A stretch of DNA of 64,000 nucleotides from Elsinoe ampelina (lineage: Eukaryota), in assembly GCA_010093995.1 (NCBI GenBank), contig ML992514.1, positions 62,001-126,000 on the forward strand, written 5' to 3'. Below are positions 41,207 through 45,300 of this stretch, piece by piece (position 1 is the first letter of the stretch; each line of letters opens with the position of its first letter). A program made the translations under genes and the position numbers. The notes under the pieces were generated by a model, which was not told the DNA's origin, searched no databases, and was given only the letters and a program-made list of their open reading frames with translations.

Positions 41207-42247
41207 TCATCGTGTCCCACTCCCCATATCTTCTACCGCGTCTGGCCTGTCCCAAGTTTCCTGTTCTAAGCTCCGGACGCGTTTGAGCAAAACATGAACA
41301 CGTCTGCTATTCGACACCTTGGCCTCTTCCTGCAGGCGCCAGGTTTCTCGAAAGGCATCCACCATGAACGGCTTGAGAGGCGCCTTCTTGGCCTTTTGAT
41401 AGTCGTAGACCACAATGTCTTCTACACATCGTGCTGCTGGTCGTTGATGCAGCTCAGACAGGATCATGACGTCCAGAACGAATGAATCTGTTGCTGAAGT
41501 CGGCTCAGTTGCCAACTTGTGGTACACTGTGACACGATCTGGGTAAGTCATGGGCTGTCAGTATCAGCGCTGCATCTCCCAAGTCACGTTAGACCACCTT
41601 ACAAACTTGAAGTCTGTCTTTATGCTCCGTAAGATCAAGCCGACTCCTCGAGAAGTCATCAACTCCTTCCACTCTTTCTTGTGCGTGGGGTCGATGTGTG
41701 TGGCATAATTCTTCGACCAAAGTACTCGTCCCGATTCCGCATATCTGTTGTACACGACATTGTTGACGTGACCTTTGACTGTAAGTCTGACGCCGACATC
41801 TCAACTCACGATTGTTCATACCCTTCATGTGGTCTCAGTCCTGATCATGTTCAGATCCCAGTATTCCGGGTATCATAGCTTTGTACTTACCATGCTGTCC
41901 ATCTCTCCCCAAACCACAGCTTGCCTGAATAAGCCTCTTCGACCGGGTGCAGTGAGAAATCCTTCGCTGCCCGCGACAAGCTCTCTCCAATCTCTTGCTA
42001 TACTTTCAAGAATGGTTGTAGCGTCCTTGGTTTGTTCATTGTTCATGCCGAATGTAATGCACTTCCCGACTCTTGTCTTGACCTCCGAAAGCCATCTTGG
42101 AGGTAACGATGCAGTTGCCGGTTGTTGTGATGTAGAGTAATTCCCTCGAGCAGACGCGGTCAATAGCCCAGTTAGTGAACGGCACGCATGGTAGTAGGAT
42201 GGCGCGGGCAGGCAAAGTAGCGGCCTTTTAGGCACAGATACTCGCAT
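41207..42247 (-). CDS. Hotdog-fold thioesterase with a mitochondrial-type presequence; exons 42247-41891, probable 1-nt exon at 41822, 41772-41603, 41554-41207
   Basis: LPPRWLS..K.RVGKCITFG, WRELVAGSEGFL, VVWGEMDSM-G-HVNNVVYNRYAES, GLILRSIKTDFKF-PMTYPD and AARCVEDIVVYDY. Confidence 0.85.
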
Positions 42248-42328
42248 CGTACCCCAAAACATGCATGTGAAGCAGGAAGACAAACACTCAAGGCTCAATT
42301 GATGCGGGGCTCTGCGGGAAGAGGAGAG

Positions 42329-45300
42329 TGTCAACCTCGGCAAGAGCTGTGGTGCCAAGAAGGACCCTGATTCAGTGCATCCAAGGTTGAACTGAGCACT
42401 TATCAACGGTTACACCAATTCATGATCAATTTAGACGGTTATTGTCTTATTCTGTTAAAGCTTAGGAGTTCTGTCAATTTAGTTATCTCTTAGGTTATCA
42501 GGTTAAGTATTTATATAGTGAGAATCCACCTAATTTTAGTGGATTAGGCAGTAATAAATCTTCTCTTTCCCTACACATAAGTCAACAGTTATAAGCCCGG
42601 TATAACTACCCCTACACAAGCAGAGTATTTAGTTGTCTTTCTACTCTATTTATTGGTTTATTCTCTACTATTTCACTTTTTAAGTACTAGAATCTGTTAA
42701 GTACTGCCTTATCTATAACTATAGGATTTAGGTGTCAATAAAGAGATAAACAACTATAGATACTAACACACTAACAGCTAGAACACCTATTATTCTTGCT
42801 ATATTAGCTAAATAGGCTAGCTAGCTATATATTATTAAGACTAGAGCTTTAAACACTAAGATCTAGTACATTATTAATCCCTAATAGACTATTAAACTAG
42901 AAGGACTCCCTAAGCCTTAGAGGCTAGATATATCAGATCCTAACTTCTTAGCACTCTTCTAGATCTATAAGAAGGAGCAAGCTTAGTATAACAAGTAGTA
43001 CAAGGCCTTAGTAGATCTAGCTAGCCTTATTTAGTCATTAATTACACTATAAGTTCTTATAGTTATCTAACTAGAGGGAGATCCCTATCTATAGGCTATT
43101 CTTAGAGCATTAAAGAACAGATTTACACTATCTAATGCTATAATCTAGCTAGAGGTTAAAGCTCTCTAGAGGAGACAACTCTCTAGTCTATTATTATAGA
43201 ACATAGACTATTAGCTTTAGCAATAGGAAGAGGTTATAGACAAGGCTAGGAATTACAACCTACTAGAAGCTTAAGGCTTAAGGCTATAGAGAGACTTCTT
43301 ACTCTCTATCTTAAGGACTAAACTAGCATTTGCTAACAAATATCTTATTAATCTAGATTTACTAACCCTACTATTAATACTCGAGTTAATTACTAAGTTT
43401 AGACAGTTTTATAAACTTTATAAGCTATATAGTAGCATAAAGGCTAGCAAGGGAGCAATAGTATTCCCTATAGCTGCTAAGGACTCTATAAAAGAGCCTA
43501 GTCCTACTAGGGAGCCTAGATATATATACTAGAAGCGGTATAAGTAAAGCAAGTGCTATTACTTAAATAAGTATCTAAGGCTAGAAGGATAGTTACTAAA
43601 CTAATAGACCCTTAAGGAGGTTAAGTAAAGGCTTAATAATAAGGCCTTAAGGGAGAAGGTTAAAGCTATCCTTACTAAGGAGACTTACCTTTATAAGGGG
43701 TTATCTCTACTAGTACTAATTAACATAGCTATAACTATTAGATTACACTTAGCATTTATCTTAGCTACTAGTAATATCTTAAGTTTATAGATTCTAGATT
43801 CTAGAGCAACTAATCACATCTGTAATTACACTATAAAGGATAGATATAAGGTTACTAGACTTATAGAACCTTATAAGTAAATGTTCTATAGTAACACCGC
43901 TTTTATAATTAAGAGCTAGGGATTAATTACTATTATAGCTCTCTATAAGGGGTAGCTAGTAACTATCTAACTTATATAGGTAGCTTATATGCTATTAATA
44001 ATAACTAATCTAGTTAGCCTTAGGAGGTTCCTAAAGGGTAGAGTCTACTAGAACACTTAAACTATAGAGATTAATTACAAAGGGAGGGTACTCTTCTTAG
44101 TAACTCTAAAACATAATTAATATATAGTAGAGGATAACTCTAAAGCTCCTTATGCTATTACTATAGCTATAGGAGGCACTAGAGATTCTTATCTATTAGT
44201 ATTTACCTTAGTTATAACAAGGACTAATTAATCCTAGTATAAAGTTATAGGCTATCTAAGTATAGAGTCTATTAATTACCTCCTAACTACTATAGTTAGT
44301 AGTGAACTAACTTTAACTAAGTCTAACTCGTATTAACTAATTTATCTTAGGTTACTATATTAGACTTGTAAGCTATCAAATACTTAGAAGCTTATCTTAA
44401 GGAGCCCTAACACTAAGATTGTTACAACTAAGCCCTTTAAAAGGATCACCTTTAACATTATTGTTAATAGGTTTACTAGCTATAATAAGGCAAGGTATAT
44501 AAGCTATTTTGCCTATAGGGCTACTAACTATCACCTTATAAGTAGTTATACTTATAGATATAAGATTAATAAAATCTATATTAAGATAATTACTTATATT
44601 AAAAGCAATCTTAGCTTTAAGGTTAGATTTATTAGGAGTGACAATAAAGAGGCTTTTAGCCTTAGATTCACTATCTTCCTAGATAGTAAAGGTATCTAAA
44701 GAGAGCTATCTACTCTATACACTCTAGCATAGAATAGTCACAGTAAAAGGATAGGGTCTATACTATTAAGGAGAGTAAGGGTAGTAGCTATCTTTACTAA
44801 TCTTCTAAGGGAACTACACTCTAAACTATATAGGTTAGTAGCCTATCTAATAAATAGAACACCTCTTAAGAAGCTAGACTAGAAAACCCCCTTTAAGCTA
44901 GTTTATAGATGCCCTCTATCTATATCCTATCTTAGACTACTTAGATGCAAGGCTTATACCCTAGATTATTATATTATAAGTAGTAATAAGCTTGCACTAA
45001 GAGCATACATTAGTTACCTAGTTAGATATAACTTAACTAACATATTTAGGATCTTTATACTAGCCTTAAAGAAGGTTATTAGAACAAGGGATGTTAGATT
45101 TAATAAGACTTAGTTCTATAAGCTAGAGGAGCAGCCTTAGCCTTAGCCTATTAGACTACTTAATCTACTAAGACTACTATAGGAAGTTAAGGAGAATATA
45201 CCTTAACCTAAAGGGGTAACTAAAGGCCTATCTATACTATAGAATCTAGTTTAGAATCTAGTTTAGAATCCAGTTTAGAATCTAGCTTAGAATTCAGTTT

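Follow-up and report, generated by a model that had tools for sequence, protein, structure and literature searches.

The window analysed here is a stretch of 64,000 nucleotides (nt) of Elsinoe ampelina (GenBank assembly GCA_010093995.1, contig ML992514.1, positions 62,001 to 126,000), and all positions below are counted from its first letter. Its minus strand carries a gene that encodes a 4HBT_2 protein (Pfam PF13279), a member of the thioesterase-like superfamily with the hot-dog fold. An exon of a single nucleotide, the G at position 41822, is very likely spliced into the mRNA of this gene, where it completes the Gly codon of the conserved motif DSMGHVNN. This conclusion is carried by assembled transcript contigs, in which both the in-frame junction and the removal of each flanking intron were observed, and by orthologous loci, many of which require the same exon.

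The frame at DSMGHVNN

The frame of exon 1 is that of the open stretch 41873..42409 and the frame of GHVNN is that of the open stretch 41564..41800, and excising the entire 118 nt between exon 1 and exon 3 puts the frame off by one. In 7 of 7 full-length homologues aligned, the sequence corresponding to the end of exon 1 (...VVWGEMDSM) is followed by that of the next exon (GHVNNV.YNRYAES) with 0 gaps. It follows that exactly one nucleotide is missing, and hence that the Gly codon consists of one base plus GT. The initial annotation, made from the sequence alone, had stated that a single intron 41890-41773 would shift the frame, and the open frames and gapless homologues bear this out. Its landmarks, namely the exon 1 end GAC AGC ATG, the end strings of both introns, G41822 and the GT CAC start of the following block, were all found to be correctly placed.

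Canonical intron sets were enumerated with a solver that accepts GT or GC donors, AG acceptors and introns of at least 35 nt, its target being the 24 nt that read W-G/A-x-x-D-x-M/F/L-x between the Trp codon and the His codon. In the window, a unique set restores W-G-E-M-D-S-M-G, with coding pieces of 21+1+2 nt and introns of 68 and 49 nt. The genomic context of the lone G is AAG-G-GTATGA at 41825-41816 (hyphens here and below mark splice borders), the acceptor AG and the donor GT directly adjoining it. A chance AG-G-GT leaving at least 40 nt on each side was obtained in 948 of 20000 shuffles of the interval (about 5%), and 0.03 occurrences of AGGGT are expected from the pentamer frequency in the window. 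Taken on its own, the motif is weak evidence, and the case rests on the RNA and the orthologues. An RNA fold of 41760-41905 gave no sign of a structure bringing the sites together (z = -0.79; 41 of 200 shuffled sequences reached an equal or better fold).

Transcript contigs across the junction

Thirteen public sequencing runs contain the stretch or part of it, several of them with some 70% of the sampled words, the share to be expected of a spliced transcript. Contigs from X3, X5 and X11, which belong to three studies, and from the DNA run X1 were compared with the window over 41500-42050; all of the RNA evidence consists of Logan assembled contigs, one per run. X3, X5 and X11 are shown to be spliced RNA because all three skip, with GT..AG borders, the ordinary 48-nt intron at 41555-41602.

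The mature form was observed in X11, whose contig (depth 689) is made up of the pieces 41500-41554, 41603-41772 and 41890-42050. In this contig 117 of the 118 nt are removed and 41772 is joined to 41890, with one base fitting either side. The product, ...AGCATG-G-GTCACGTC..., reads ATG GGT CAC, restoring the frame and DSMGHVNN, and it is the RNA junction that the initial annotation had predicted. The contig contains one nucleotide more than canonical removal of the whole interval would leave.

Partial and alternative forms were found in the other two runs. The X5 contig (depth 6.8) is unbroken over 41603-41821 and then skips 68 nt with GT..AG borders, so that intron A is out and intron B is in. 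The X3 contig (depth 29.6) skips 49 nt with GT..AG borders, which is the removal of intron B at the G-GTATGA donor, and also skips 50 nt (GT..AG) from 41890 to an alternative CAG acceptor at 41843-41841. The piece 41820-41839 between these two joints (+1 and +2 cuts) corresponds to a 19-nt exon, 41840-41822, which reads ATG GAC TGA and so introduces a stop, its length keeping the frame. The stop-containing form is the sole form assembled for run X3, so that a considerable share of splicing may be unproductive in certain conditions.

Both internal splice sites beside G41822 are thus used, each without the other, because X5 removes intron A alone and X3 removes intron B with another upstream joint. 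At the contig level, both flanking introns are therefore excised at these borders, and the one-nucleotide exon between introns of 68 and 49 nt that had been proposed from the sequence is supported by the X11, X5 and X3 contigs together. No letter or gap difference from the window was observed in any of the four contigs. The RNA contigs match 41890/41891-42050 without differences, the sequence of intron B is confirmed by X5, and all 551 bases of 41500-42050 agree between the X1 contig (depth 223) and the window. The genomic sequence is accordingly supported by one DNA contig and three RNA contigs, though X1 may be the source of the assembly; an assembly indel at the outer splice sites, which the initial annotation had named as a refuting observation, was seen in none of X1, X3, X5 and X11.

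Gene and product

The positions of the gene's features are collected in Table 1. The gene product is predicted to be a thioesterase by family membership. PF13279 was found at 27.7 bits in the translation of 41603-41773 and at 34 bits in that of 41207-41554 (gathering cut-off 25.5), the matches on these two flanking exons jointly spanning profile positions 10-122 of 122, and the same family is present in database homologues of the gene. The nearest database proteins are those of Elsinoe batatas (94% identical in the last exon) and E. fawcettii (86%), and in the tree described below the window protein stands beside that of E. batatas, with 96% identity over 170 columns. The ATG at 42247-42245 is the presumed start codon of exon 1, chosen after the E. 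batatas model P0001; a further in-frame ATG lies at 42262-42260.

Table 1. Features of the minus-strand thioesterase gene, in window positions
Feature	Positions	Strand	Remarks
Exon 1, coding part	41891..42247	minus	ends ...GAG ATG GAC AGC ATG, phase 0
Intron A, 68 nt	41823..41890	minus	GTAAGT...ATGAAG; excised alone in X5; inside the 117 nt of X11
One-nucleotide exon G	41822..41822	minus	first base of Gly codon GGT in DSMGHVNN
Intron B, 49 nt	41773..41821	minus	GTATGA...TCAAAG; excised separately in X3, kept in X5
Exon 3, 170 nt	41603..41772	minus	GT CAC GTC AAC AAT ... TTC AAG TTT
Exon 3, translation	41603..41772	minus	(G)HVNNVVYNRYAES...KTDFKF; present in all three RNA contigs
Intron C, 48 nt, ordinary	41555..41602	minus	skipped with GT..AG in X3, X5 and X11; present in X1 DNA
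Last exon, coding part	41207..41554	minus	stop TGA at 41209-41207
Putative branch-like ACTGAG, intron A	41834..41839	minus	A at 41835, 12 nt before acceptor
Putative branch-like ACTTAC, intron B	41781..41786	minus	A at 41782, 9 nt before acceptor
Alternative acceptor CAG	41841..41843	minus	50-nt intron 41890-41841 and 19-nt exon 41840-41822 with in-frame TGA

Architectures of orthologous loci

Orthologous loci were sought in metagenome contigs of the Joint Genome Institute (JGI) by means of an alignment of 18 homologues. Of 588 matching stretches 498 could be confirmed, and the 80 best were retained. Ten of these 80 stand outside the count, a contig end cutting them off or an anchor being absent, which leaves 70 evaluable loci, and for all 70 a canonical solution was found. 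Where a locus had several solutions, the one giving the invariant Gly with GT donors was kept. The initial annotation had suggested looking for a conserved internal AG-G-GT in orthologous loci, and a one-nucleotide exon of this form is required in 32 of the 70, with the motif invariant in 28 distinct sequences. Ten of the 32 share the window's architecture of 21+1+2 nt. In the other 22 the pieces are 12+9+1+2 nt, an extra intron after W-G-E-M being followed by a 9-nt exon D-S-M and then by the 1-nt exon. One phase-0 intron (ATG-GT..AG-GGN) was found in 18 loci, no intron in 14, a 2-nt exon GG followed by C (21+2+1 nt) in five, and one phase-1 intron (ATG G-GT..AG-GC) in a single locus, L053. 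Among the eight cut-off loci that reach far enough, five show AG-G-GT (L013, L019, L044, L047 and L057), two are intronless, and in L031 the exon begins with GT and is too short for more. L048 is ambiguous between two candidate Gs, either of which gives a 1-nt exon.

The loci with the 9-nt D-S-M exon (L021, L022, L023, L028-L030, L032, L033, L036, L041, L049, L051, L052, L054, L056, L058, L060, L063, L067, L068, L074 and L078) have three introns within eight codons, the first of which is absent from the window. In L067 this first intron, after W-G-E-M, is of the GC-AG type (donor GCAAGT), and its relatives L056 and L058 have GTGAGT. In the same three loci the reading H-V-N-N-V-T-Y-N-R meets a stop about 27 nt after the His codon, which points to an additional intron in the exon that the window has in one piece. 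The loci with the 2-nt exon (L014-L017 and L039), which are 88-98% identical to Aureobasidium proteins, read CAAG-GG-GTGAGT ... CAG-C; the second intron lies one base further on, and its donor is strong (GTGAGT or GTGAGC). L053 has a single 55-nt phase-1 intron, ATG G-GTAATA...GTAG-GC, which occupies the position of intron B in the absence of intron A and is displaced by one base from the phase-0 intron that 18 other loci carry. The named protein closest to L053, which sits on a long branch, belongs to Xylona.

Conservation of the splice signals

The signals around the G were compared in the window and in 31 loci (L048 excluded), which together amount to 28 distinct sequences. AG-G-GTA is invariant in 28 of 28, and the remainder of both introns varies freely. 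The acceptor before the G is usually AAG, with A at -3 in 86%, and a motif resembling CTRAG or CTRAY stands about 10-17 nt upstream of it. Intron B, 48-61 nt long in the loci analysed, has its own motif resembling CTGAC or CTAAC before its own acceptor across the orthologues. Of the two calls made on these signals in the initial annotation, that both acceptors are AAG holds in the sequence, and that the branch sites are weak has to be qualified, as the same signals recur across the orthologues. The window's ACTGAG, AAG and ACTTAC thus appear to be the normal signals of the family.

The donors of intron B are less regular. After GTA, C (46%) and T (50%) are commonest, then T and N (GTACTC, GTATTG, GTACCC). 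A G at +5, typical of fungal donors, is present in the donors of intron A and mostly absent from those of intron B. Such a systematically weak donor may tie the recognition of intron B to its neighbour. After removal of three duplicates from the 18 phase-0 loci, 15 distinct introns remained, and an internal AGGGT was found in 0 of them.

Distribution and evolution

A quick tree of 104 rows and 170 columns was built, unrooted and supported by Shimodaira-Hasegawa-like approximate likelihood-ratio test (SH-aLRT) values only, and the architectures were assigned to taxa by the nearest named proteins in this rough tree. Rows with the 21+1+2 architecture, including the window, stand beside Elsinoe and Myriangium, together with L004, L035, L038, L042 and L048. 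The 12+9+1+2 architecture stands beside Pleosporales (Melanomma, Lentithecium) and the lichen-forming Lecanoromycetes (Pleopsidium, Psora), the phase-0 intron beside Hortaea, Cercospora, Zymoseptoria and a Xylariales protein, the 2-nt exon beside Aureobasidium, and the phase-1 intron beside Xylona. The 38 rows with the 1-nt exon, which include the window and five cut-off loci, fall into 28 clusters at 90% protein identity. Presence and absence of the exon require at least 6 changes on the tree among the 77 rows scored, and gain and loss are not distinguishable because the tree is unrooted and weak. The AG-G-GT exon appears to be inherited and not a local accident, being found in many distantly related ascomycete lineages.

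The intronless loci L001-L003 nest (96% SH-aLRT in the rough tree) among the 1-nt-exon loci L004, L013 and L035. From the sequences, this nesting fits a clean simultaneous loss of both introns, for example through a copy of spliced RNA.

Taken jointly, these data allow a tentative reading, held with somewhat less than even confidence, that the one-nucleotide exon is ancient and stably inherited and that the two-intron state is a stable intermediate for intron shifts of one nucleotide. If so, the exon would predate the split of several classes of filamentous ascomycetes, spanning Dothideomycetes (the Elsinoe and Pleosporales lineages), lichen-forming Lecanoromycetes and perhaps Eurotiomycetes. 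Loss of intron B would then yield the phase-0 intron, loss of intron A the phase-1 intron of L053, and a move of intron B by one base the 2-nt GG exon of the Aureobasidium-like loci, and the protein would never change. This would be a second, non-stwintron route to one-nucleotide intron shifts, with living intermediates, and the poor donors of intron B would mean that its splicing depends on a context made by its neighbour.

Alternative explanations

Several points weigh against the reading that G41822 is an exon bordered by two introns. The transcript evidence comes from Logan contigs and not raw reads; isoform proportions are not given by these, and a contig path could mix molecules. The X5 form stems from a contig of depth 6.8. 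No run is on record as RNA, so that the RNA nature was guessed and it is the spliced structure that shows it. The mature junction alone cannot tell which G was kept, and a one-step excision of 117 nt with GT..AA or TA..AG borders would produce the same mRNA. X1 may be the source of the assembly and hence not independent DNA evidence. A form lacking only 41773-41821 (intron B), which the initial annotation had predicted as an intermediate, was not seen among the three RNA runs. The branch sites are sequence motifs that are putative in their use. On the side of the orthologues, more than one canonical solution exists in nine loci (L004, L035, L022, L023, L039, L048, L051, L052 and L060), one of the two search peptides was the uninterrupted DSMGHVNN, so that intronless loci are over-sampled and the class proportions are not population estimates, and the taxonomic spread of the metagenome loci is read from a weak tree, in which 32 of 90 inner branches have less than 80% support.

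The same mature junction could arise from a single excision of 117 nt with non-canonical borders, GT..AA (41890-41774) or TA..AG (41889-41773), the internal AG-G-GT being used only in side products. The joint in X11 is indeed ambiguous by one base, its ends being given as CT..TA on the plus strand, and the partial forms of X5 and X3 are both unproductive as they stand, so that they could be dead ends. A single step is nevertheless unlikely, since independent runs show splicing at both internal sites with exact GT..AG borders, each half contains a separate branch-like motif and has a length typical of the gene's other intron (48-68 nt), a canonical solution exists for 70 of 70 evaluable loci, and a single step would not require the AG-G-GTA that is invariant in 28 distinct orthologous sequences. 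An error of assembly or sequencing at an outer splice site of one ordinary intron, or a frameshifted pseudogene, is far less credible still. A discrepancy of 1 nt is the commonest assembly error and the sole DNA run compared may be the assembly source, but the RNA contigs from three studies match both exon edges, X5 confirms intron B, a separate Logan assembly of X1 (that possible source) gives the identical sequence, and the same one-base deficit with an internal AG-G-GT is present in 32 of 70 evaluable unrelated contigs; a pseudogene is also contradicted by a mature mRNA that is in frame.

Two further arrangements had been raised in the initial annotation. The main product could use a 13-nt exon (41822-41810, with a GTGAGT donor at 41809 and a 37-nt intron), giving ...MGMNNRHVNN..., which keeps the frame, and GTGAGT comes closer than GTATGA to the usual fungal donor consensus. 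This exon was found in 0 of 3 RNA contigs, the deepest of which (X11, depth 689) has the 1-nt form and one of which has the 19-nt exon instead. It would moreover add four residues within a motif that 59 of 120 database homologues and 7 of 7 aligned ones carry without interruption, and would need an intron of 37 nt, shorter than any seen in the gene, so that it is hardly plausible as the main product. The arrangement had also been termed stwintron-like. In a stwintron, one intron lies within a splice signal of another, and the outer site is formed only once the inner intron has been excised. The term holds loosely, for two consecutive reactions in one intervening region, and in Pezizomycotina, where stwintrons are documented. 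A true stwintron is very improbable, however, and membership was rejected, as neither intron breaks up a splice signal of the other: GT and AG are intact for both in the primary transcript, each was seen excised without the other, and no AGT overlap of the [D1,2]/[A2,3] kind occurs at a usable place in the interval. The nucleotide between the introns stays in the mRNA, unlike in the stwintron types described in the available portion of Fekete et al. (2017; PMC5587772).

Proposed splicing mechanism

In the mechanism that we infer, which includes its sequential order, intron definition, the branch points and the fate of the unproductive forms, the coding sequence of DSMGHVNN would be split by two complete, independent U2-type introns around the exonic G41822. 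Intron A and intron B would each be recognised across itself (intron definition), with its own GT donor, branch-like motif and AG acceptor; intron definition is the usual mode for short fungal introns. As A's acceptor and B's donor lie within three nucleotides of each other, the two introns would be removed one after the other, and their simultaneous engagement is implausible because the donor region of B, about -3 to +6, extends into the acceptor of A. Removal of A would join ...ATG to G and leave G-GTATGA as an ordinary donor, and removal of B would join G to GT CAC, giving ATG GGT CAC for Met-Gly-His. The X5 form shows that A-first removal occurs. The initial annotation had proposed that the downstream intron is removed first, which finds no support: in X5, the one intermediate-like form seen, the upstream intron is removed and the downstream one retained.

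The path from A to B would resemble recursive splicing, but with one base retained. At the zero-nucleotide ratchet points of Drosophila recursive splicing, a 3' splice site adjoins a 5' splice site, and after the first ligation the end of the upstream exon and the downstream GT form the next donor, as at the thioesterase G. Nothing is retained at ratchet points and the introns are very long, whereas in the thioesterase gene one nucleotide is retained and the introns are of the shortest class. Membership among recursive splice sites (zero-nucleotide exons) was rejected, as one G is retained in the mRNA.

Splicing at this site is not clean: retention of intron B shifts the frame, and use of the upstream CAG acceptor gives a stop. 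Both unproductive forms, the 19-nt one with its stop and the frameshifted one that keeps intron B, look like the price of a crowded site. As two of the three RNA runs yielded unproductive forms, expression of the enzyme may hypothetically be limited or tuned at splicing.

Relation to known one-nucleotide exons

One-nucleotide exons are already known; what is new is the thioesterase case and its unusually wide conservation. In the P450 gene CYP621A of Fusarium, an AG-G-GT one-nucleotide exon was reported from 20 orthologues with Sequence Read Archive (SRA) reads and was presented as the first fungal case (Nelson and Syed, 2026; PMC12940212). As in the thioesterase, the gene is a fungal nuclear gene, the G belongs to a Gly codon of a conserved motif, the phases of the flanking exons differ by one, automatic models are wrong and public RNA gives support (PMC12940212). 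The G is the middle base of the codon in CYP621A and the first base in the thioesterase, and the 20 orthologues of CYP621A come from one genus (PMC12940212), whereas the thioesterase exon occurs in 28 clusters at 90% identity from apparently several orders or classes. In the thioesterase, as against CYP621A, sister states (2-nt exon, phase-0 or phase-1 intron only, intronless) and partial or alternative splice forms were observed. Breadth of conservation, the co-occurring 9-nt exon, the sister states and the directly seen partial splice forms are what distinguish the present case.

In Arabidopsis APC11, a single-nucleotide exon was proven by base-substitution constructs (Guo and Liu, 2015; PMC4674806). 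According to the available part of that paper, the exon is constitutive and needed for the frame, and intron definition with successive removal of the two introns is argued for there as well. It is unlike the thioesterase exon in belonging to a plant gene, in its base, A, and in lying 333 nt into a formerly annotated 422-nt intron; it has base-substitution proof (PMC4674806), whereas the thioesterase exon is known from contigs and sequence comparison. The rice paralogues of APC11 are without the intron, and deep conservation is not reported in that part of the paper. A long-read annotation of Coprinopsis cinerea lists, in the portion available, 13 exons of 1 nt in 13 genes (PMC12230235). These too are fungal 1-nt exons from transcript evidence whose omission leads to premature stops; the species is a basidiomycete, and the exons are given there as genome-annotation counts (PMC12230235). 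A plant micro-exon database, as far as its accessible description goes, spans 1-15 nt.

Stwintrons offer a further comparison. A [D1,2]/[A2,3] stwintron and a one-nucleotide intron shift were described in a DHA1 antiporter gene of Pezizomycotina, and in the accessible text the one-base offset between orthologue introns is derived from a two-intron state through alternative loss (Fekete et al., 2017; PMC5587772). As far as that text goes, the DHA1 stwintron and the thioesterase share two consecutive reactions, a two-intron state as a possible stable intermediate, and orthologue introns displaced by one nucleotide (in the thioesterase, the phase-0 intron of 18 loci against the phase-1 intron of L053). 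They differ in that the thioesterase introns abut a retained nucleotide with their signals unsplit, whereas the introns of the DHA1 stwintron overlap by one G (PMC5587772). No publication on this thioesterase gene, and none joining micro-exon, Pezizomycotina and thioesterase, was found in a search that left the supplementary tables of PMC12940212 and PMC12230235 outside its scope; the list of 13 Coprinopsis genes could include a thioesterase.

Gene models and significance

The present case adds a transcript-supported 1-nt exon, in a plant-pathogen genus, that is kept across wide evolutionary distances, and it bears on the smallest exon that the spliceosome handles under intron definition. The natural variants that stand side by side (1-nt exon, 2-nt exon, phase-0, phase-1 and intronless) make intron sliding and splicing order testable. 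A one-nucleotide exon can also defeat automatic gene prediction, and annotation pipelines for ascomycetes should allow exons of 1, 2 and 9 nt in the thioesterase gene.

The motif W-G-E-x-D-x-M-x-H-V-N-N is uninterrupted in 59 of 120 database homologues; another 59 deviate or are incomplete, and two are without both anchors. Neither of the two named Elsinoe models has the junction right: 18 residues are skipped in P0001, and P0002 continues into the intron, its DSM-VSPKL... corresponding to the same letters as the window's GTAAGT.CAAAGCT translated. At the junction with the 2-nt exon, the A. pullulans models P0009-P0013 and P0016 are all wrong. Aberrant models such as '...SSFK-GHVNN' were not counted in favour of a 1-nt exon in further named species, because a phase-0 intron ending AAG-GGN gives the same K-G-H read-through. 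Such models show annotation trouble and not its cause. In P0101, P0112, P0094 and P0057 (406-1955 residues), the thioesterase is fused to neighbouring genes and extra Pfam domains are present; these are probably annotation errors near the same locus in assemblies of lichen and rock fungi.

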